29,814 nucleotides of DNA, taken from assembly GCA_040380025.1 (NCBI GenBank), contig JBEIJY010000029.1, forward strand, positions 1 through 29,814. Direction: 5' to 3'. Origin of the DNA: Bdellovibrionales bacterium. Lineage in GTDB: Bacteria > Bdellovibrionota > UBA1018 > CAIMNF01. Below, in pieces: positions 1,929 to 29,795 of this stretch. The notes below the pieces were generated by a model, which saw only the letters and a list, made by a program, of their open reading frames with translations, ran no database searches and was not told the origin of the DNA. How positions within the stretch are numbered: the first letter of the stretch is position 1; each line of letters opens with the position of its first letter. Both the position numbers and the translations under genes were made by a program.

Positions 1929-2030
1929 GATTTCGACCTCAAATTCGGTTTTACCAACCAGTGGTTTTACCAGCCTCTGTCGAACTCTTCGTCAGGATGC
2001 CGACCAAACTTTAGTCACAATCCAAACTGG

Positions 2031-2217
2031 CCCCTTTGAGTGTGCTTGATGATGGAGCGAGATCGGCCGAGGGAGTTGGAATGATTCGGCTTTTACCTCC
2101 GAGCCGCGTCGTGCGGCCTCGCTTTCGCGCGTCACGCGCTCGCGAGAGTCGGCAAAAACCGAATCATTCCAACTCCCTCGGCCGATCTCGCTCCCTGCGA
2201 AAACACAATCAAAGGGG
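2031..2217. repeat. Long imperfect inverted repeat (core 44-bp arms 2054-2097 / 2151-2194, 2 mismatches; outer 17-bp stem 2031-2047 / 2201-2217) capped by two hairpins
   Basis: GGAGCGAGATCGGCCGAGGGAGTTGGAATGATTCGGCTTTTACC versus the reverse complement of 2151-2194; head hairpins at 2100-2121 and 2122-2148. Confidence 0.9.
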
Positions 2218-2231
2218 GCAGCTTGAGGGTG

Positions 2232-2741
2232 TCAGCGGATCATCTTCTGAAAATACTCCGTCACTTCGGGCTGTTGCCACTTCCGGGCGCCCACCCACTT
2301 TTCGATCACCTTGCCATCCGGGCCCACAAAATACGTCTCGGGGTACTGGAACGACCCCATCGCCTCGGCCGCATCGCGGTCCCGGTCCATGGCCAAAAGA
2401 AAATTCGGGGGAAGGTTCCGCCCCCCCTCCGGAAACATGCTCTGGGCCTCTTCGATGGTGGGATCGAGGCTGACCGCCACCACTCGGAATGGCTTCTGAA
2501 ACGCCGCGTTCTTTGCGAACTCCACGAGATGGGGAATCTCCTCGGCGCAGGGTTCGCACCACTTCGCCCAAAAGTGCAAAAGATAATAGCTTCCCTTCAG
2601 CTTCTCGCGGTCGAAGTCCTCGACCTTCGCCATCGCGGCCGCGACGGGCGACGGTGGGTTCTCACGACGCTCCCGCACCACAAAGACTGTCAAAGCTCCG
2701 ACGGCGGCCAATAAAATCAGAAGAATCGGTTTTTTCGTCAT
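2232..2741 (-). CDS. TlpA/ResA-family membrane-anchored thiol-disulfide oxidoreductase
   Basis: N-terminal TM anchor, LHFWAKWCEPC active site, cis-Pro loop YPETYFVGPDG; ATG at 2741 preceded by GAGGTG SD. Confidence 0.9.
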   Translation of the reverse strand: MTKKPILLILLAAVGALTVFVVRERRENPPSPVAAAMAKVEDFDREKLKGSYYLLHFWAKWCEPCAEEIPHLVEFAKNAAFQKPFRVVAVSLDPTIEEAQSMFPEGGRNLPPNFLLAMDRDRDAAEAMGSFQYPETYFVGPDGKVIEKWVGARKWQQPEVTEYFQKMIR

Positions 2742-2752
2742 TTTTTCACCTC

Positions 2753-2782
2753 TTGTCGGTTTCAGGAAACCCAAAGTATCAT
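2753..2782 (+). promoter_or_regulatory. Putative promoter giving a leaderless HNH mRNA
   Basis: TTGTCG-N18-TATCAT-N6-ATG(2789), no SD. Confidence 0.5.
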
Positions 2783-2788
2783 AAAAGA

Positions 2789-3334
2789 ATGGAAGGTCGG
2801 GCCCTTCTTCTCAATGCATCTTTTCAGCCCATTCAAGTCATCTCATGGCAGAAGGCCATTCAGCTTTTCTTTTCGGGAAAGGTCGAGGTCGTCGAGAGCT
2901 CCGACCGGATGATCCGCTCGGTCTCGATCACGATCCCGATTCCGCGGGTGATCCGCCTGATCCGTTTCGTTCCCCTGAACTCGCGCAAAAAAAACAGCGT
3001 CGTGCGCTTCACCCGGAATCACGTGTTCCTGCGGGACCATCACACCTGCCAGTACTGCGGCCAAAAGCCCCCGACCCAGCACCTCACCATGGATCACGTC
3101 ACCCCGGTCGTAAAGGGCGGGAAAAAAACCTGGGACAACATCGTCACCGCCTGCCGGCCCTGCAATATCAAAAAAGGCGGAAGAACCCCCGAAGAAGCCG
3201 GAATGCGCCTGAAGCGCCCGCCCCGTGAGCCCGCCTGGCTTCCCTTCATCGGAATCGATTTCGATCTGAATGGAACCTCGGAATCGATCCGGATTCTGGT
3301 TCGCACCTATACAGGGGGCGGGGATTCAAGCTAA
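2789..3334 (+). CDS. HNH endonuclease (stand-alone McrA-like family)
   Basis: Family-typical start LLLNASFQPI; RDHHTCQYCG...LTMDHVTP..KGGKKTWDNIVTACRPCNIKKG zinc/HNH motif; real start MEGRA at 2789. Confidence 0.92.
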   Translation: MEGRALLLNASFQPIQVISWQKAIQLFFSGKVEVVESSDRMIRSVSITIPIPRVIRLIRFVPLNSRKKNSVVRFTRNHVFLRDHHTCQYCGQKPPTQHLTMDHVTPVVKGGKKTWDNIVTACRPCNIKKGGRTPEEAGMRLKRPPREPAWLPFIGIDFDLNGTSESIRILVRTYTGGGDSS

Positions 3335-3343
3335 GATCGGGAC

Positions 3344-4471
3344 GTGTCGCTCGAAGCAAATGCGCTTGGATTCTTGGCCTTTTATCTCAGTCCCTTCAGC
3401 AGCCGGAAGTCGATTGACCTCTTGAAGCTTCAACTGCTGAAGCGCTCGCGCAAGGTCAAAACAAAGGACCCCTTGCTCGCCGAAGCGGGACTCATTCGCG
3501 AGATCGTGCGGGTCCTCGTCAAGCGCCGAAAGGCCATCCTCGCCCACCTGAACCCGCTCGAACCCCATGAGCCCGCATTTTTGGAGCTGATCAAGCTTCC
3601 CCCCGAAGACGCCCTCTTGCTTTGCTCCGGAGCGATCTACCCGATCTCGCTTGATGCCCTCTCTCTGGCCCTGAAGACCCCGCGCGAAAGCCTCCTCTAC
3701 CGCAAGGAGCGGCTCGTAGCCCTCTTCGAATCGCAAAAGCTTCACCTCGAAGCCCTTCAGACCGATCCCGGAGCCCCGGGAACCCAGTCCCTGAAGGGTG
3801 GAATCCGTCCCCGGAACCGCGGGCTGTTCACCCGGTTTCAGACCCTTCCGATTCTGATCCGGTTTTCGATCGAGACCAGCCTCGTGCTCGGCATCCTCCT
3901 CGGACTTCTTTGGGTCGTTCCCGAAATCCGGAACCGCTACGAGGCGTCGATCGAGAAGAAGATCAACGAGTACCTGGTCGAAAGCGCCCTGACCGATGCG
4001 CCTCCGCCCGAGGGCACCTCGAGCCTTCCCCGTGAACCCATCACCGAAGGAGTGCCCGAAGAAGACGCGCCTGTCAATGATGTGGTCAAAAGCAGCAGTG
4101 AACCACCCTCGGCGAAGCGCCAGCCCCGCGTGAACGAGGGCGAGACGTGGAGATTTTCGTTCACCGGCGCGGCCACACCCGAAATCGAGTCGATGATTCT
4201 CGATTCGCTGAAGAGAATCGGGGTTGCCGGGGCCAAACCCCTCTCGGTACCGGGGGGAATCCAGTTCGACTTCAACCTCGAGACCGCGGCGGTTCTCGAC
4301 CTGAAGAGCCGCTTTGAAACCGCAATCGCCAGCTTGCAAAGGAAGGCGCCCGGGGCCCAGGCCACTCCGCTCGCCTATGCGAACATGAGCTGGTACAAAA
4401 AGAAGCACATGGGCACGCGCAAGATTCCGGCGGGGAATGTGCAGGTCATTGTTTGGATTTCGACGCTCTAA
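3344..4471 (+). CDS. Hypothetical single-pass membrane protein
   Basis: 375-aa ORF filling the gap before the terminator; central hydrophobic helix (SLVLGILLGLLWVV) followed by a Pro/Glu/Ser-rich linker and a C-terminal globular region. Confidence 0.75.
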   Translation: MSLEANALGFLAFYLSPFSSRKSIDLLKLQLLKRSRKVKTKDPLLAEAGLIREIVRVLVKRRKAILAHLNPLEPHEPAFLELIKLPPEDALLLCSGAIYPISLDALSLALKTPRESLLYRKERLVALFESQKLHLEALQTDPGAPGTQSLKGGIRPRNRGLFTRFQTLPILIRFSIETSLVLGILLGLLWVVPEIRNRYEASIEKKINEYLVESALTDAPPPEGTSSLPREPITEGVPEEDAPVNDVVKSSSEPPSAKRQPRVNEGETWRFSFTGAATPEIESMILDSLKRIGVAGAKPLSVPGGIQFDFNLETAAVLDLKSRFETAIASLQRKAPGAQATPLAYANMSWYKKKHMGTRKIPAGNVQVIVWISTL

Positions 4472-4510
4472 GCAAACTGCCTGCACTCAGAGCAACCAGA
4501 CATGACAAAT

Positions 4511-4541
4511 AAAAAAAGCCCCGGTGAACCACCGGGGCTTT
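4511..4541 (-). terminator. Intrinsic terminator after rplQ (probably bidirectional)
   Basis: AAAGCCCCGGTG-AAC-CACCGGGGCTTT stem; A7 run at 4511-4517 gives a U-tract on the minus strand; lies between convergent genes. Confidence 0.85.
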
Positions 4542-4566
4542 CTCGATCTTGAATTTCGATTCAGGC

Positions 4567-5175
4567 TTATTCAGCCGACTTCTTGGCGGCTTTTTTTGCA
4601 GGGGCCTTTTTGGTGGTCGCTGCTTTTTCGGCCTTCACTTTTGCAGGGGCGGCTTCTTTCGCGCCTTCCTTGCCCGCTTCTTTCTTCGCGGCTTTCTTCG
4701 AGCCCGAGAAGAGCTTGCGCATTTTTGCGAATGGATCGGTGGCTACCGATTCGCCCGCCTGACCTTCCGCGCCTTCCGCAGGAGCGGCTTTCGCCTTCTT
4801 CTTGCGGTCGATCTTCGGATGATCCACGAGCTCGATCATCGCCATCTTCGCAGCGTCACCGTAGCGACGCTCCGAGATCTTCACGATGCGGGTGTAACCG
4901 CCCGAGCGTCCCTCGTAGCGCTTCACCAGCTCGTCGAACAGCTTCGCCACCACACCGTCATCGCGGGTGCGGGCGAACGCCAAACGGCGGGCATTCAGAG
5001 TGTTGCGCTTGGCGAGAGTGATCAACTTCTCGGCAACTCGGCGAGCTTCTTTCGCCTTCTCGATGGTGGTCACAATTTGTTCCTGCTGGATCAGGCTGTT
5101 GGCCAGATTGGTCAGCATGGCAACCCTGTGCGAGGTGTTTCTGCCAAATTTTCTACCGTCTACTCCGTGTCTCAT
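4567..5175 (-). CDS. rplQ: 50S ribosomal protein L17 with long Lys/Ala-rich C-terminal extension
   Basis: MRHG...[30 protein letters not shown]; last gene of the alpha operon. Confidence 0.97.
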
Positions 5176-20519: not shown

Positions 20520-20834
20520 TTAGGATTTGATCTCCACATCGACGCCGGCCGAGAGGTCGAGCTTCATGAGAGAGTCGATGGTCTGCTGGGTGGGCTCCAC
20601 GATGTCGAGAAGACGCTTGTGGGTTCTTACTTCGAACTGCTCACGGGATTTTTTATCCACGTGCGGAGAACGGAGGACGGTATACTTGTTGATCACGGTG
20701 GGAAGAGGGATCGGCCCGCGAACGACTGCGCCGGTTCTCTTTGCAGTGTTCACGATCTCCCACACGGATTTGTCCAACACGCGATGATCAAACGCTTTCA
20801 GCTTGATGCGGATTTTGTGTTCAGCGACTGCCAT
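20520..20834 (-). CDS. rpsJ: 30S ribosomal protein S10
   Basis: [30 protein letters not shown]. Confidence 0.99.
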
Positions 20835-21165
20835 GACATTCCTTCTTTCGTCGTCCCTCTTGCATCAAAACAGACCCAGAAAGGCCCGAACCGATGCGCA
20901 GGGGAGCGCATAAGTGGTTTATTCGTTTTTCGACCTATTTTGCTCTCATCCTTCGCGGTGACTGAAACCCGGAGATCGCCTGCTTCAATGCAAGCTTTCT
21001 TTCGCCCGGATTTCGCCATTTCTGCCTCGCCTTGGTGTTTTCTTTGGGAAAACAACGCCGAATCGTTGGCGTTTTTACCAAGACAGCCCGCGAAATGTAG
21101 TAGCAGAGCTAAATTTGGTGCGACAGGTTGAAACTTTTACCCAAACCTGTTCAAGAAAGCAAGAA

Positions 21166-23340
21166 TTAATTCACTCCCGAAAATGCAGGCCCGCCCTGCC
21201 CCCCGGATTCCCCCGGTCTTTCGGGCAGAATCCCCGCCCGTTCCTTGATTTGCTGGAGAACCTGGGCCGACACCGGCGAGTAATGCGAGAACTCCATCGA
21301 AAACGTTGCGCGGCCCTGCGAGGACGAGCGAAGCACGGTGGAATAGCCGAACATCCGGGCCAGGGGAACCTCGGCATCGATGATTTGCAGGTCCCCGCGC
21401 GCGTTCATGCCGTGGATCTTGCCTCCGCGGCCATTCAGGTCGCCGATGACCGAACCCATGTATTCAGCCGGGCACACCACCTCGCACTTCATCTGGGGCT
21501 CCAGAATGACCGGGCCCGCCTTCCGGGCGGCATCCTTGAATGCCATCGCGGCGGCGACCTTGAAGGCCATCTCTGACGAATCGGTCTCGGAGAACGAGCC
21601 TCCGGTAACGGTGCACGCGATGTCGACCGCAGGGTAGCCGGCAAGAACCCCGCCCGACATGGCCTCTTTCAGGCCCTGCTCGACCGCAGCCACGAAGTGC
21701 TTGGGAATCTGCGCCTCGGTGGCCTGGTTTGCGAACGAGAAGCCCTTGCCCCGCTCCATCGGCCGGATCGTGACCGCCACATGCGCGTATTGGCTTTTTT
21801 GCCCCTCACCCTGCCGGATGAACTTCGACTCGCCCGGAGCGGCCACCTCGACCGTCTCGCGGTACGAAACCTGCGGCGTGCCCACATTGGCATCGACCTT
21901 GAACTCGCGCTTCAGGCGATCGACGATGATCTCGAGATGGAGCTCGCCCATGCCGCTGATGAGCGTCTGCGCGGTGTCTTCGCTTTGGTTCACCCGGAAG
22001 GACGGATCCTCGGTCGAAAGACGCGAGAGCGCCTGCCCGAGCTTTTCGCCGTCGGCCTTGGTTTTCGGCTCGATTGCGATCGAGATGACGGGCTCGGGGA
22101 ACTCGATTTTTTCGAGCAGAACCTGACGCCCCTCCGAACAGAATGTGTCGCCGGTGGTGGCGAGCTTGAGCCCCACGATCGCGACAATGTCGCCCGCGGT
22201 GACCTCCGAGACCTCTTCGGATTTGTTCGCATGCATGCGCAAAAGCCGGTTCGCGCGCTCGCGCTTTCCTTTGTTCGCATTCCAGAACACCGAGCCCGCC
22301 TCGAGTTTTCCCGAATAGACGCGAATGTAAGTGAGCTGTCCCACGAAGGGATCGGTCATGATCTTGAAAGCGAGCGCGGCGAAAGGCTCCGCGGGATCGG
22401 GCGAGCAGAGGATGTCTTTGGTCTCGTCGGCCGGAGGATGCGCGATCACGGCAGGAAGATCGGCGGGCGAGGGAAGATAGTCCACCACCCCGTCGAGCAG
22501 GGTCTGCACGCCCTTGTTCTTGAAGCTCGCGCCGCAAAGAACAGGAACCATCTTGAGGCCGATCGTTCCGGCCCGGACCGCCGCGCGGATCTCGGCAGAA
22601 GACGGCTCTTCTCCGGCCATGAACTTCTCGAGGATCGCCTCGCTGAAGTCGGCCACCTGCTCGATCAGGTTCGCCCGATGCAGGTCGGCCTCATCGCGAA
22701 GATCGGCCGGAATTTCTTCGATTTTGTATTTCGCTCCGAGATCGGGGGACTCCCAGCGGAGCGCCTTCATCTCGATCAGGTCGATCACGCCCTGCAGACG
22801 ATCCTCGGACCCCCAGGGAATCTGCACCGGCACCGGACGACACCCGAGGCGCTCCTTCATTTGCCCCACAACCGCATCGAAATCGGCACCCACGCGATCG
22901 AGCTTGTTCACGAACGCGATGCGGGGAACGCGGTATTTGTCGGCCTGTCGCCAGACGGTCTCGGTCTGGGGCTCGACTCCGCCCACGGCACACAGGACCA
23001 CGATGGCGCCATCGAGAACGCGCAGGGAGCGCTCGACCTCGATCGTGAAGTCCACGTGCCCGGGAGTGTCGATGATGTTCACCCGATGATCCTTCCAGAA
23101 GGCCGTGGTGGCGGCCGCGGTGATCGTGATCCCCCGCTCCTGCTCCTGGGGCATCCAGTCCATGGTGGCGGTCCCCTCGTGAACCTCGCCCATTCTATGG
23201 GTTTTTCCGGTGTAAAACAGAATCCGCTCGGTGGTGGTGGTCTTGCCGGCGTCGATGTGGGCCATGATGCCGATGTTCCGGATCTTGCCAAGCGCCTGCA
23301 GGGTTTTCTCGTCGAGTTTTTTCGGTTCTGGTTTTGCCAT
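21166..23340 (-). CDS. fusA: Elongation factor G family GTPase (str-linked, divergent domain IV)
   Basis: [35 protein letters not shown] and all five EF-G domains. Confidence 0.96.
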
Positions 23341-24503: not shown

Positions 24504-24579
24504 GCCGATGTAGCTCAGTTGGTAGAGCAACGCTTTCGTAAAGCGTAGGTCGACGGTTCGAGTCCGCTCATCGGCTCCA
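24504..24579 (+). tRNA. tRNA-Thr(CGT)
   Basis: GCCGATG-TAGCTCAGTTGGTAGAGCA-ACGCT TTCGTAA AGCGT-AGGTC-GACGG TTCGAGT CCGCT-CATCGGC-TCCA; 76 nt; one A-C mismatch in the T-stem. Confidence 0.95.
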
Positions 24580-24698: not shown

Positions 24699-25934
24699 TC
24701 AGAGCAGGCGAAGCAGATCGTTGCAGCCGTCATCCTTTTTTTCGAAATAGCGCAGGGTCCAGCCATCGTGCCTCATGTTCTTGGCCAATTGGGGGTCAAA
24801 CCCCGCTGAAGACATGTATTCCGTCCTCACGTTGACCCCGGCTTCGGCGCGGAGCAAATCCGCAATCAGCTTTTTGGATTCCAACTGATCCAACCGGTTG
24901 TATCTTGAGAAGCTTCGTTGAAGATCATCGTAATTGATCGGATCAGAGACCAGTTTCGCCTCGCCCAGATACAATACTCCATCCTGGATGCGAACCAGAT
25001 CGAGCTCCTCACCCAGAATGCGTTCCTTGATGAATTCAAGCTTGGCATCAAGCACATCTCCTTGAATTCGTTCCCGGATCGACTCAAGCTTCGCTTTCGT
25101 CTCTTCATCCGGCGGGATCGAAAAGAGCTCCGGATACTGTTTTTGGAAGTTTTCCAACAGGCCGGGCTCCTTCTTGATTTCGGGTTTGAGTTTCTCCCAA
25201 AACCGAAGAAACGGCTCTCTCACCTCGGGAATCTCGCCCACTTTCTGACCGATCGAAACCGCTCCGGGCAGGGCCACCGACATGTAAAGTTCTCCCAGCA
25301 AGCCGCCCAAACCGGTCTCGATGGTTTTGGAAACCTCTTGAAGATCGTGAATCCCGAGTTTTTTCTTCACCGTCTTCATGTCGCCCAGGAACGGTTTCAA
25401 CAGCCCGTCCCTGATCACACGACTTTTATCGATGGCGGCCTTCGCCGTCTGATAATGGGCATCCAAGCCCTCAGACTTGAGCGTGCTCAGAAATTCATCA
25501 AGAAGCAGGTCGGCGGCGTTGTTTCGGTTGGTCACGAATTCGAGACAGGACTCCAGGGTATAACTCTCGAACTGTCCATAAACATCCCGGAACCTCTTCA
25601 GACGCCCATTCGCAAGACGCAGATCCATCAACAAAAAGGCGAGCTGTTGGTTTTTCAGCGCCGGCGAGCCCGGCATCGCATTCATCGGTGGATGATCGGC
25701 ATGCTGGAGCTTCATGAGACCGTATTTTGTCAAATACCGATCAATATTGGTGTTTCCGAAGTCCGATCGGGGAAACAGCATGGCGCCGGTACCATAAGAT
25801 GGAACATAGTTTTCCCAATAGATAAGGTCTCTCTCGGGGAGCTGCGCCCAAACAAGAGACCCATGCCCGGCGAACCCGAAAAAACAAAGGGCGAAAAAAG
25901 CGGCTACTTCTCGGAACTGACCAGATCTTGACAT
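24699..25934 (-). CDS. Secreted PD-(D/E)xK nuclease-like protein, paralogue A
   Basis: Signal peptide (..SLVWA|Q); GLLGE...EELDLVRIQDGVLYLGEAK...QLESKK...SSAGF; ends GCNDLLRLL; homologous to the three neighbours. Confidence 0.7.
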   Translation of the reverse strand: MSRSGQFREVAAFFALCFFGFAGHGSLVWAQLPERDLIYWENYVPSYGTGAMLFPRSDFGNTNIDRYLTKYGLMKLQHADHPPMNAMPGSPALKNQQLAFLLMDLRLANGRLKRFRDVYGQFESYTLESCLEFVTNRNNAADLLLDEFLSTLKSEGLDAHYQTAKAAIDKSRVIRDGLLKPFLGDMKTVKKKLGIHDLQEVSKTIETGLGGLLGELYMSVALPGAVSIGQKVGEIPEVREPFLRFWEKLKPEIKKEPGLLENFQKQYPELFSIPPDEETKAKLESIRERIQGDVLDAKLEFIKERILGEELDLVRIQDGVLYLGEAKLVSDPINYDDLQRSFSRYNRLDQLESKKLIADLLRAEAGVNVRTEYMSSAGFDPQLAKNMRHDGWTLRYFEKKDDGCNDLLRLL

Positions 25935-26029
25935 ATTGCGTCAGCTTTTAGCACAAGGCAATGACAGCAAACAAGGAAAAACAAACAAAAAAGAACAACT
26001 ACTTTAAAGAGTCAGATTCGCACCTTGGA

Positions 26030-27223
26030 TCACGGGCGGCGAAGCAAGTCCGAGCACCCGGCATTCACCCCGGCGATCGAGTGAAGGATCCACCCGTCCT
26101 CGCTCATCTTCCGGGCAAGGGATTCCTCGAAACCCGCCGAGGAAACATACTCGTACCGGATGTTCAAACCGGCCTCTTGTTCGAGCAGTTTCGCAATTTG
26201 TTTCTTGGATTCCATCTGATCAAGCCAAGTGAACTTGTCGAACCGGTTGTTGAGAGACCGGGCATCAAGGAGGTGCGCCGTTATTTTTGTCTCTCCGAGG
26301 TACAAAACTCCATTTTCAATCCGGACAAGGTCGATCTGCTCCGCCAGAATGCGCCGCTTGATCCTTTCAAGAATCTCACCTTCATTCATGTAGGTTCCAT
26401 TCGGCGGAAGATAGCTGAACAGCGCCGGAAACTGGCGCCGATACTCTTGAAGCAGCGCGGGGTTTTCTTTGATCTTCGCTTTGATCTTGCCCCAGGCCCC
26501 GAGAAACGGCGTCATCAATACGGGAATGGTTTCGAGGGTTTCCCCGACCGAAATTGCGCCGGGCAAGGCAACCGAAACATAAAGTTCCCCGATCAATCCT
26601 GCCAACTGAACCTCGACGGATCTTGCCGCACCCATCAGCTGATCCGCCGACACGAATGAAAAATTCCCCTCAAAAAAAGGCTCCATCCTGACTCTTCTTG
26701 TGGAGTGGAACCGGGCGATGGCGAGCGATGCGGTTTGATGGAGCTCCCGATTCCCAGTGGCGTTCAACCCGTTCAGAAACTCGGTCAGCATGAGATCGGT
26801 CGCCCGATCCCTGCTGTTCACATACCGGAGACACAGATCAAGGGTATTCCTGCCGTGTCTCGGGATTTTCGCTCGATACTGTTCCACGGACGCGTTCACG
26901 AAGCGCAGATCCATCAGCAAAAGCGCAAGCTGAGGATTGCTCCAGGCGAGCGATCCCTCGAGGATCCGGACGGGGGGAGCGGACGCATGCCTGAGATCGA
27001 CATACCAGTACGAGGTCAAGAACCGCTTGATCGCATTCGACTTTCCGAATTCCGACCAGGGCTTCCTCACTGCCTCGGGGGCGACGCGTTGGGGCTCACC
27101 TTCCCAAAAAAAGTGATCGCTCGGCGGAAGTCCCTGGGCATTTACAAGGGCCGAGGGCAATCCCAATGCCGAAAAAAGAAGACACCGGACCAGAACGCCG
27201 AAACATCCTTTAAGAGTTGACAT
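26030..27223 (-). CDS. Secreted PD-(D/E)xK nuclease-like protein, paralogue B
   Basis: Signal peptide (..ALVNA|Q); GLIGE...EQIDLVRIENGVLYLGETK...QMESKK...SSAGF; ends GCSDLLRRP. Confidence 0.7.
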   Translation of the reverse strand: MSTLKGCFGVLVRCLLFSALGLPSALVNAQGLPPSDHFFWEGEPQRVAPEAVRKPWSEFGKSNAIKRFLTSYWYVDLRHASAPPVRILEGSLAWSNPQLALLLMDLRFVNASVEQYRAKIPRHGRNTLDLCLRYVNSRDRATDLMLTEFLNGLNATGNRELHQTASLAIARFHSTRRVRMEPFFEGNFSFVSADQLMGAARSVEVQLAGLIGELYVSVALPGAISVGETLETIPVLMTPFLGAWGKIKAKIKENPALLQEYRRQFPALFSYLPPNGTYMNEGEILERIKRRILAEQIDLVRIENGVLYLGETKITAHLLDARSLNNRFDKFTWLDQMESKKQIAKLLEQEAGLNIRYEYVSSAGFEESLARKMSEDGWILHSIAGVNAGCSDLLRRP

Positions 27224-27285
27224 GTTGCGTTAACGAGTAACAAAAACGTAAGCCAAATTCAAGAAAAACAGAACAAAAAAGACAA

Positions 27286-28551
27286 CTATTCTCCTGACAT
27301 GTCTCCTGACCGGGGCGGCTTGAGCAGAGTCGAACACCCGGACTGGATCGGCCCCAAGGAATACAGACTCCATCCGCGCCCCCTGAGTTCGGTCGCGAAG
27401 GTCTTCTCGAATCCCCCGCCGGACATGATTTCAAGGTGCACATTCATGCCAAATGAACGGAGCAGTTTTGAGATTTCTTCCTTGGACCGGATTTGATCCC
27501 CCATCGTGTTGAACCCCACCTGGCCCGAAAGGGACTCGAAATCAAGGGCCGTAAAACTCATTTTGGACTCGCCCCAAAAGTAGACTCCGCCCACCTTGCG
27601 GATCACGTCGACATCCTCATTCATGATGCGGTTCGTGATCACCTTGAGTTTTTCATCGACAGGCTGGTCTTCGATATGACGGACGGATGCGACGAACAGC
27701 CCCGGATACTCGCGCGAGTATTGCTGGAACAGCTCCGGATCGACTTGCAGACGCGCCTCCAAAGGCTTCCAACCCTGCTCAATGAAGGTCAAAAAGTCGG
27801 GGATCTGCCGGACTTTCCGTCCGTATGCGAATGCCCCGGGCAGGGACACCCCCATATACAATTCTCCCACCACACCGGTGACTTTGGTCTCGATGTCTCT
27901 CGAAATCTCGAACGATTTCTGGAAGCGTTCGGAGTTTTCCTGAATCGGAAGGTTCTCGAGGGATTCCGTCGCATATCGCTCCATCTCGGAACAATAGTCA
28001 TTCATGAAACTCTCGAGGTCATCGATCAGAGGCCCCAGTGTGCTTCCGAGGGTTGGATTTTCTCTCGAAACCAGATTCTGGAATTTTCGCAGGAATCTCA
28101 TCGTGACTCTTTTGCGGGCCCACGCGAAGTCCATCCGGAAATCCAGGCTGGCATGGGAACCGCGATCCTGGAAATAACTCGTGATGAACTCCCCCATGGA
28201 CGAGTTCACATACAGAACATCCATCAGCAAGAAGGCAAGTTGACTTTCTTTTGCGGCAAGCGACCCCGGTTCCACCCGGATGGGCGGTTTCGCGCGCTGA
28301 AGAAAGAGGGCGGAATGGAACTTTTCGGTGAACTCTTGAACACCCGATTCGGCCTGCTTCCCGAACTTGGACCGGAGCCCCGTCATCTCGGGACTGTTTC
28401 GAGTAAACGTGCGCTCTTCGTATTGCCGGAGCTTTTCGAGCCCGGAGAGTGGCTGTTTTTGCGCCGAAGCGACCCCCGCCGACACCAGAAAAACCGAACC
28501 AAGAACCGAGAAAACCCGGAAATAGGACAAAATAAGCTTTTTCATTTTCAT
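27286..28551 (-). CDS. Secreted PD-(D/E)xK nuclease-like protein, paralogue C
   Basis: Start MKMKKLIL at 28551 overlapping the upstream stop (ATGA); signal peptide (..VASA|Q); GVVGE...EDVDVIRKVGGVYFWGESK...SGGGF; GCSTLL near the C-terminus. Confidence 0.7.
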   Translation of the reverse strand: MKMKKLILSYFRVFSVLGSVFLVSAGVASAQKQPLSGLEKLRQYEERTFTRNSPEMTGLRSKFGKQAESGVQEFTEKFHSALFLQRAKPPIRVEPGSLAAKESQLAFLLMDVLYVNSSMGEFITSYFQDRGSHASLDFRMDFAWARKRVTMRFLRKFQNLVSRENPTLGSTLGPLIDDLESFMNDYCSEMERYATESLENLPIQENSERFQKSFEISRDIETKVTGVVGELYMGVSLPGAFAYGRKVRQIPDFLTFIEQGWKPLEARLQVDPELFQQYSREYPGLFVASVRHIEDQPVDEKLKVITNRIMNEDVDVIRKVGGVYFWGESKMSFTALDFESLSGQVGFNTMGDQIRSKEEISKLLRSFGMNVHLEIMSGGGFEKTFATELRGRGWSLYSLGPIQSGCSTLLKPPRSGDMSGE

Positions 28552-29795
28552 TCCTCCGCTCCGCCCAGAAGCCCGGAGCAAGAATTCTGACTTTTTGCCC
28601 TTAATTCATCGCGAAGAGAATGAAGCACCCAGCCGCTGCCTTCGAGCTCCCGCGCCAGCTCCGGGGCGAATCCGCCCGCATTCATGTACTCGAAGCGGAT
28701 TTTGAGGCCTGCGCCCTCAAGAAAACTCTTCAGTTGCTCTTTGAACTCCACCTGACGGGCCAGAGAGTTTCGATTGTTCGGCTCATGCATCGCGCTTTGA
28801 TCAAGGGGCTTGCCGATCATCTTGGTCACTCCGATGATCAATGCGTCTTCTTCGCGGCGAATGAGATTCATCTCTTCGCTCATCATGCGCAAGCGGATCA
28901 CCTTCAACCGCTCCTCGAGCGAAATATTCGATGCGATGTTCTCGACCGGGGCGCGGAACAGCAAAGGGAATTGCCCTTGAAGACGCAGGAGCTCGTCGGG
29001 GGATTCGAGGATTTTTTTCTCGATGGGCTTCCAGAGAGTCTCGAACGGAACACGAAACTCGGGGATATCGTGGATTCTCGCGCCGACATGAATCGCACCG
29101 GGCAGGGCCGCCGCGAGGTAGAGGTCGCCTGTGACTCCGATCACGCGGGCTTCGATTTTTTTCGAGATATCGATGATTTTTGCGAGACGATCCGAATCGG
29201 AGTTCAAACGAAGCTCGGAAAGCGGCTCCAACGCATACCCTTGCAAGTCGCCAAAGCGGGTGGACAGCTCCGAGAGAACCGAATTGAGATACTCCCGGGT
29301 ACTTTGCCCCAACGAGGGATGATCACGGGCAAGCAGAGCTTCGAATTCGCCAAACAAAAGAGCGACTGCATGGTTCCGGTTCCGCGCAAACTCCGAGACC
29401 CTCCAGAGCGAGAGCTCCCAGTTGCGCTTTTCGTGCGCCTGCACAAAGCGCTCAAGCGCCCCGTTCACAAGGCGCAGGTCCATCAGAAGGAATGCGAGCT
29501 GGTTTTCTTTGGCGGCGGGAGAGCCCTCTGCGACCGCAACCGGAGGAAGAAGCATGTGCTGGAAGGACGCGTAGCGGTACCGTTGCAGGTACTCGGGAAT
29601 GAACCCCCGCGAGGCGATCCGGGAGCGAGGCACGGCGATTCCGGGGTCATCGAATTTCATCGATTGTTGCTCGTATTGAACGATCGGACTTTCTTCGGGA
29701 CCGCTTTGGGCGCGGGCAGGTTCGACAGAAAACGCCCCGCTCAAAAAGCCCAAAAATACTGCAAGATTGACCGCAAACCTGAAATCCCAAAACAC
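28548..29795 (-). CDS. Secreted paralogue D, predicted catalytically inactive
   Basis: Signal peptide (..PARA|Q); same blocks but GVTGD, EEMNL and IGVTK at the catalytic positions; ends SCSGLLGGAEE; GTG start with an in-frame stop just upstream. Confidence 0.68.
   Translation of the reverse strand: MFWDFRFAVNLAVFLGFLSGAFSVEPARAQSGPEESPIVQYEQQSMKFDDPGIAVPRSRIASRGFIPEYLQRYRYASFQHMLLPPVAVAEGSPAAKENQLAFLLMDLRLVNGALERFVQAHEKRNWELSLWRVSEFARNRNHAVALLFGEFEALLARDHPSLGQSTREYLNSVLSELSTRFGDLQGYALEPLSELRLNSDSDRLAKIIDISKKIEARVIGVTGDLYLAAALPGAIHVGARIHDIPEFRVPFETLWKPIEKKILESPDELLRLQGQFPLLFRAPVENIASNISLEERLKVIRLRMMSEEMNLIRREEDALIIGVTKMIGKPLDQSAMHEPNNRNSLARQVEFKEQLKSFLEGAGLKIRFEYMNAGGFAPELARELEGSGWVLHSLRDELRAKSQNSCSGLLGGAEE

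Follow-up and report, generated by a model that had tools for sequence, protein, structure and literature searches.

An apparently undescribed family of exported proteins with a predicted PD-(D/E)xK nuclease fold in Bdellovibrionota

Bdellovibrio bacteriovorus secretes the DNases Bd0934, Bd3507, Bd1244, and Bd1934, the first two of which it releases into the bdelloplast; according to the accessible part of the same report, it is not precisely known which enzymes digest prey DNA (PMC7925074). Evidence on the secretion routes of predators is limited as well, as far as the accessible text of PMC12428579 goes. Among secreted toxins with a restriction endonuclease (REase) fold, Tox-REase-7 carries the signature “GxxxE, IxD, ExK, Q,” and the type II secretion system is one of the export routes of polymorphic toxins (PMC3482391, accessible part). 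The predicted secreted effectors of CapCone-2 are concentrated in Bdellovibrionota (PMC12419801, accessible part). Here, we analyzed a 29,814-nucleotide (nt) window that makes up the entire contig C29 of a Bdellovibrionales genome (2.35 Mb, 98% complete) and contains four open reading frames (ORFs), D, C, B, and A, arranged in this order on the minus strand; the letters A to G name the copies of the array to which they belong. The encoded proteins represent a real and, apparently, undescribed family of exported PD-(D/E)xK-fold proteins in Bdellovibrionota. Judging from sequences and structural models, we put the probability that they are delivered to prey and cut DNA or RNA there at about 0.5.

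The fold was assigned using ORF C (P0002; 397 aa; positions 26030 to 27223, minus strand). In the full-length AlphaFold model [predicted local distance difference test (pLDDT) of 85.9], a linker is followed by a four-helix bundle (residues 74 to 223; 26555 to 27004), a catalytic domain (residues 195 to 382; 26078 to 26641) with a helical insert of ~60 aa, and a flexible tail. The original prediction had placed an unknown domain of ~200 aa before the nuclease part; this region does precede it and resolves as the linker and the bundle, the last helix of which bears E213. When the catalytic domain was modeled alone (pLDDT of 94.5), the E was located on a long helix, the D and the ExK on neighboring strands, and the Q on the next helix. 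A VIA-align search with this domain model recovered the expected REase core (alpha-beta-beta-beta-alpha-beta): The PD-(D/E)xK fold was present in 48 of the 50 best structural neighbors, as judged by their titles and known folds. The top matches were AF1548 (Z of 8.8, root mean square deviation of 2.4, 101 aligned residues), Upx (Z of 8.1), XisH (7.3), and NucS (7.1), with BstEII and Card1 also among the best. The search with the full-length model returned a list filled by generic helical bundles, and the bundle itself had generic bundle matches only. Model and structure search thus agree on the fold and on the helical insert that separates motif I from motif II, as had been proposed from sequence, and the assignment of the C-terminal domain to the PD-(D/E)xK nuclease fold holds at the level of structural modeling.

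The predicted catalytic residues are nearly invariant in an alignment of 60 family members with a mean identity of ~20%. In ORF C numbering, E213 is found in 58/60, D298 in 58/59, E311 in 57/59, K313 in 58/59, and Q336 in 56/58 sequences. Copies B, C, D, and F have the complete E, D, E, K, Q set, and in the model the residues lie on the expected secondary-structure elements. Four of the sequence blocks noted originally, PP..GS.A....QLA.LLMD, G..G(E/D)LY....LPGA, Q...K, and GF....A......GW.L, are present in all four ORFs of the window; the S-x-GF block is not kept family-wide, and the E.(L/I/V)D...GE.K block occurs in B, C, and D and is missing from A, which reads EEMNL...GVTK. Two orthologue pairs gave ratios of nonsynonymous to synonymous substitutions (dN/dS) of 0.07 and 0.04, and a third pair was saturated. 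Weak Pfam matches among 28 members, in keeping with the fold, were to NERD (8/28; best E value of 3.6e-4), SfsA (4/28), UPF0102/YraN (3/28), and DUF234 (2/28); the Atlas score for NERD/YraN/SfsA/DUF234 was 0.86, a lead-level value.

Two of the seven copies have eroded sites. ORF A (P0004; 415 aa; 28548 to 29795, minus strand) has D, N, V, K, Q, with Asn replacing the motif II Asp and Val replacing the Glu of ExK. Copy G, on contig C34 (positions 2024 to 3208), has Thr at motif I and has lost the Glu of ExK; it is a remote, degenerate family member (hhalign probability of 97%). From their sequences, both are probably catalytically dead. That such ORFs stay intact could mean that the substrate of the fold is not a long nucleic acid but a tRNA, a cyclic nucleotide, or a different phosphodiester, or that its main role is binding, with dead copies serving as decoys or binding partners. 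The large bundle and the insert, which could narrow the site, and the presence of RNA cap-snatching endonucleases among the structural neighbors fit this idea. We nonetheless consider it quite improbable, given that the canonical E-D-ExK-Q set is close to invariant across the family and that two members, its most compact forms, have no insert.

A hydrophobic leader was called in 55 of the 60 members, and the remaining five look N-terminally truncated; calls were made using hydropathy and an A-x-A heuristic rather than SignalP. All four ORFs carry the predicted signal peptide, a hydrophobic leader with A-x-A and then Gln. In ORF C, a Sec-type leader covers residues 1 to 29 (27137 to 27223) and ends in VNA before the Gln; in ORF D, it covers residues 1 to 30. 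Predicted mature proteins start with Gln in all seven copies, compared to a background of 57/304. A pyroglutamate rule for this Gln was considered and dropped, as glutaminyl cyclase PF05096 was not found in the genome. In Halobacteriovorax-type members, two cysteines are invariant, C17 at the lipobox position and C36 after an R-x-x-A-S stretch. Both the export signals and the affiliation of the host with a predatory phylum are as originally supposed.

A profile search of 1.84 billion representative proteins yielded 41 proteins at E ≤ 0.001. A wider profile had matches in 33 of the 401 genomes searched from the phylum, this genome included; the four lowest-ranking matches are questionable, and among these is an unrelated 1055-aa protein. 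Of 16 same-genus genomes, 7 carry the gene. Members with a named host include those of Halobacteriovorax marinus SJ (CBW26561.1, “hypothetical exported protein”), other Halobacteriovorax, and Bacteriovorax antarcticus, so that cultured hosts include both genera; further members come from Bdellovibrionales metagenome-assembled genomes, one of them from a same-genus genome. These names identify the phylum as Bdellovibrionota. Most genomes have one copy in variable surroundings, as does H. marinus with its single copy; genome G018 has four matches (contigs C28, C31, and C24, two of them adjacent on C31), and genome G009 has three. The view of the array as a conserved system therefore did not survive: Relatives mostly have one stand-alone gene, and catalytic residues have been lost from two of the seven copies. 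From its distribution, the array is best described as a lineage-specific expansion of a usually single gene.

The possibility, raised in the original prediction, that the family matches an already characterized one was not borne out in Pfam, NCBIfam, PADLOC, or Protein Data Bank (PDB) sequences. Pfam gave no nuclease family on the four array proteins and none for 36 relatives among the matches listed, NCBIfam assigned no family, and each PADLOC family matched one of 36 members at most. The PDB sequence search gave no family, its haemagglutinin rows being coiled-coil noise (E of 0.1 or worse). A word-indexed protein search returned three members, all already in the family set, and neither phage records nor a related-locus search from one array protein gave a match. 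We found no account of the family, its accessions, or the CxxLL tag described below in a literature search largely confined to texts outside subscription papers and supplements.

There is no other ORF inside the four-gene array and no methylase, immunity, or secretion gene, as had been stated. Across 28 family loci examined by eye, no methylase and no recurring small or conserved partner was seen within ~1.5 kb; neighbors were housekeeping or secreted proteins, not defense genes. Methylase PF01555, the one methylase family searched for, was not found in this genome. These surroundings bear on whether the proteins might act in the periplasm as a barrier against phage or plasmid DNA, cutting it as it enters, an alternative offered in the original prediction that found little support. 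The patchy range of the family and its lineage-specific expansion beside a tRNA gene would suit such a barrier, as would the defense nucleases (Upx, Card1, Can2, and restriction enzymes) that appear next to the cap-snatching enzymes among the structural neighbors. Fold neighbors do not show function, though, and with no defense genes nearby and no shared PADLOC family we regard a barrier role as highly improbable.

A feature that had been missed is a CxxLL motif near the C terminus of all four ORFs: CNDLL in D (24711 to 24725), CSDLL in C (26042 to 26056), CSTLL in B (27322 to 27336), and CSGLL in A (28566 to 28580). It ends all six complete array copies and, in ORF C, lies on the flexible tail (pLDDT of <50 for residues 385 to 397). 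In most other members, a single Cys with hydrophobic residues behind it directly follows the signal peptide instead. Among 54 full-length members (six truncated ones were left out), 44 have the tag at the N terminus only, 8 at the C terminus only, none at both ends, and 2 at neither; as background, any Cys occurs in the same N-terminal window in 118/349 proteins. In a FastTree phylogeny, the C-tagged members fall into a single supported clade, except for one that is placed elsewhere.

The motif is not restricted to the family. Among 729 leader-bearing soluble proteins of this genome, 21 bear the strict motif behind the signal peptide and 17 bear it at the C terminus (~1 expected in each case), and 4 of 852 leaderless proteins end in it. 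The leader filter was loose, and a few matches were judged false by eye; the UvrD, OEP, and PhoD entries are probably false positives. Some 30 exported proteins unrelated to one another that bear a terminal CxxLL are encoded on contigs C1, C2, C3, C5, C9, C10, C12, C14, C17, C25, C26, C35, C38, C40, and C46. When 28 tagged proteins were scanned, 17 had no Pfam family; the matched ones include three AAA/ClpB-like ATPases, a PIN-PhoH protein, an M3 peptidase, a 2H phosphoesterase, and two FGE-sulfatase-like proteins. Walker A motifs are intact in the AAA/ClpB-like ATPases and in PIN-PhoH. Fic-, kinase-, ART-, and metalloprotease-like motifs noted by eye in other tagged proteins had no Pfam support and were not used as evidence. 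Of 30 PIN-PhoH loci, three hold second copies with both a leader and a Cys motif (this genome, C38; genome G013, C89; genome G002, C3), and all 27 leaderless housekeeping copies, the nearly universal form, have neither. Among 29 relatives, there are 13 M3 peptidases with leaders, of which 5 have the Cys motif, 4 have a lipobox, and 4 have neither. An exported 1055-aa protein with an N-terminal Cys motif (locus L044, 31 to 3195) has a P-loop domain that we take to resemble zeta toxin.

These patterns could be accounted for if terminal C-x-x-L-L were a portable sorting tag that works at both the N and the C terminus and marks Sec-exported effectors of Bdellovibrionota for delivery to the prey cytoplasm. 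We advance this only tentatively and think it rather doubtful. The cargo would include the array nucleases and enzymes that normally reside in the cytoplasm: ClpB-like and AAA ATPases, PIN-PhoH, the oligopeptidase, and the 2H phosphoesterase. The consensus varies by lineage (CxxLL in this genome, CxxxV-like in G018), as expected if it coevolved with a receptor.

A pathway for the nucleases can be proposed in four steps. First, the proteins would be exported by Sec and cleaved by signal peptidase at A-x-A, as predicted from sequence. Second, they would fold in the periplasm, apart from their own chromosome; this may be why the loci have no methylase or immunity gene. Third, and this is the weakest step, they would be exported again into prey or the prey-contact space, probably via a secretin machine, with the terminal Cys motif serving as a sorting or attachment tag. 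Five secretin loci were found in this genome; the type VI secretion system sheath gene VipA was not. Fourth, the E/D/E/K site and the Q helix, whose fold and residues are described above, would cleave phosphodiester bonds in a metal-dependent manner, killing the prey and freeing nucleotides for a cell without de novo purine genes (neither purD nor purH was found above cutoff in this genome). The signal peptides and the absence of purD and purH fit equally well with scavenging nucleases that act in the medium, in the periplasm, or on the surface and digest free or biofilm DNA with no entry to live prey. The lipobox-position Cys17, invariant in six Halobacteriovorax-type members, suggests membrane anchoring there and is consistent with such scavenging. 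Yet seven copies with 27 to 42% identity would be unneeded for bulk digestion. ATP is scarce outside the cytoplasm, and since the tag is common to ATP-dependent enzymes, which could not function in the medium, the prey cytoplasm is preferred as the destination. We consider scavenging unlikely.

A number of observations weigh against prey delivery and against the tag as its signal. This genome is from an uncultured organism, whose predatory habit is deduced from the phylum it belongs to and from the genes it has lost, and both nuclease activity and prey delivery are predictions from sequences and models. The gene was not found in 368 of the 401 phylum genomes, so the family is no part of the core predation machinery. 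A Foldseek search with the domain gave no match at E < 0.001 and the structural Z-scores are middling; the case for the fold thus rests on the uniform match list and on the residues. As for the tag, family members are kin rather than independent, and the 44/8/0 split may therefore reflect perhaps two switches, not eight. Six of the 17 C-terminal matches in this genome are the array copies themselves, and the strict motif was refined after the first lists of this genome had been seen. In held-out samples of ~350 to 400 kb each, the strict motif was found in 0/141 (G002), 1/124 (G068), and 0/152 (G018) leader-bearing proteins. Enrichment of a looser motif was confined to G018 (13/152 versus 1.7 expected), and these 13 include two proteins that guided contig choice and several membrane-protein false matches. 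The tag is real in this family and genome, and its phylum-wide sharing is without support from the samples. The motif might instead be a site of disulfide dimerization or lipid attachment or a lineage-specific by-product, which we rate as a serious possibility, if somewhat short of even odds. The absence of enrichment in two of three held-out samples and of the tag in 8 of 13 leader-bearing M3 peptidases of relatives speaks for this explanation. It does not readily account for a motif that occurs at either end within one family, never at both, and on a flexible tail, or for PIN-PhoH, where the second copy of three genomes has acquired motif and signal peptide together and 27/27 leaderless copies have neither.

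The array lies 3′ of a ribosomal-protein cluster and a tRNA-Thr(CGT) gene (24504 to 24579, plus strand; ARAGORN) and is inserted just past the tRNA 3′ end. The remaining ORFs of the window are D (P0001; 411 aa; 24699 to 25934, minus strand) and B (27286 to 28551, minus strand; 421 aa from the ATG at 28551), both with a complete catalytic set. The start ATG of B overlaps the stop of A; an alternative start at 28545 gives 419 aa (P0008). The distances D/C, C/B, and B/A are 95, 62, and −4 nt, in line with the arrangement of four same-direction ORFs originally proposed, and A to D share 29 to 41% pairwise identity over near full length (E of 1e-40 to 1e-98). The spacers upstream of D and C (25935 to 26029 and 27224 to 27285) are T-rich with similar ends and may hold internal promoters or terminators.

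What had been taken for a four-member array runs past the contig end (29796 to 29814) and likely resumes on C34, which opens with three more paralogues on the same strand as one another, for a total of seven in the genome with 27 to 42% mutual identity: E (C34 1 to 710, cut off by the contig end), F (773 to 2017, complete catalytic set), and G. Farther along C34 lies a 163-aa ORF (4148 to 4639) that, among 15 same-genus loci, adjoins rpsL in 6; in 5 of these it comes directly after tRNA-Thr. Because of this synteny, the seven copies likely form one array, C29 joined to C34. No contig bridging C29 and C34 was found; contigs from run X1, a possible source of this DNA, that cover the two ends extend 199 and 408 bases further, approximately the length missing from E. 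Since the 163-aa ORF directly follows tRNA-Thr in same-genus loci, the array and one unrelated secreted gene would thus constitute a ~10-kb insertion after tRNA-Thr. This secreted gene, upstream of the array in the same insertion (C34 3246 to 4091), encodes a 281-aa protein with no family assigned. A tRNA-targeted integrative element is unsupported: No tRNA 3′ repeat was found on C34, no integrase was seen, and G+C content at third codon positions is genome-like (0.63 to 0.72 versus 0.71 ± 0.05 for the genome). With no repeat and a composition near the genome value, the array looks like an old local expansion. Elsewhere in the window, rpsJ comes directly after what we take to be fusA, and no tuf lies in between (20520 to 23340; gene names presumed from translations), and an ORF at 2489 to 3334 has what we take to be an HNH-endonuclease-like motif and no signal peptide.

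The family is an unannotated candidate for prey-DNA digestion in Bdellovibrio-like predators, and it is unusual in design for a restriction-fold nuclease to be exported with no partner that confers immunity. New here are an exported family expanded to seven copies and a Cys motif that switches ends. Because a single-copy member exists in cultured H. marinus, the family can be assayed and knocked out. If the Cys tag is a delivery signal, then the effector repertoire of a predator could be listed from sequence, and the sorting-tag reading, if true, would imply an undescribed two-step effector pathway.

By analogy, the family resembles a secreted REase toxin in its presumed working but differs from Tox-REase-7 in profile, in carrier, and in having no immunity gene. 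As far as the accessible text gives the published signature, GxxGE, ExK, and Q agree with it and motif II reads E-[IL]-D in place of IxD. The four array proteins had no match to the Tox-REase-7 profile, nor did 36 and 28 relatives among the matches listed (Atlas score of 0.81, lead-level). An RHS, filamentous-haemagglutinin, or WXG carrier is lacking, as are an immunity gene in the array and a conserved small neighbor in the 28 loci. Nor is the family a restriction-modification system: Type II and type IV restriction systems are cytoplasmic, type II having a linked methylase as well, whereas its members bear leaders in 55/60 cases and have no linked methylase. CapCone-2 is likewise predicted to be secreted in the same phylum but comprises lipid-targeting two-gene systems of another fold, with no cysteine tag mentioned in the accessible part of the report (PMC12419801). 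Bd0934, Bd3507, Bd1244, and Bd1934 are, like the array proteins, predator nucleases with signal peptides. We take those four enzymes to have other nuclease folds. Within the PD-(D/E)xK superfamily, AF1548 (1Y88), Upx (9WUF), XisH (2OKF), NucS/EndoMS (2VLD), and Card1 (6WXW), all of which we take to be cytoplasmic proteins, have the same core topology and the same E...D...ExK...Q residue order. To these solved domains, with which it shares 9 to 20% identity, the array family adds a signal peptide, a four-helix bundle, a helical insert, and a terminal Cys.

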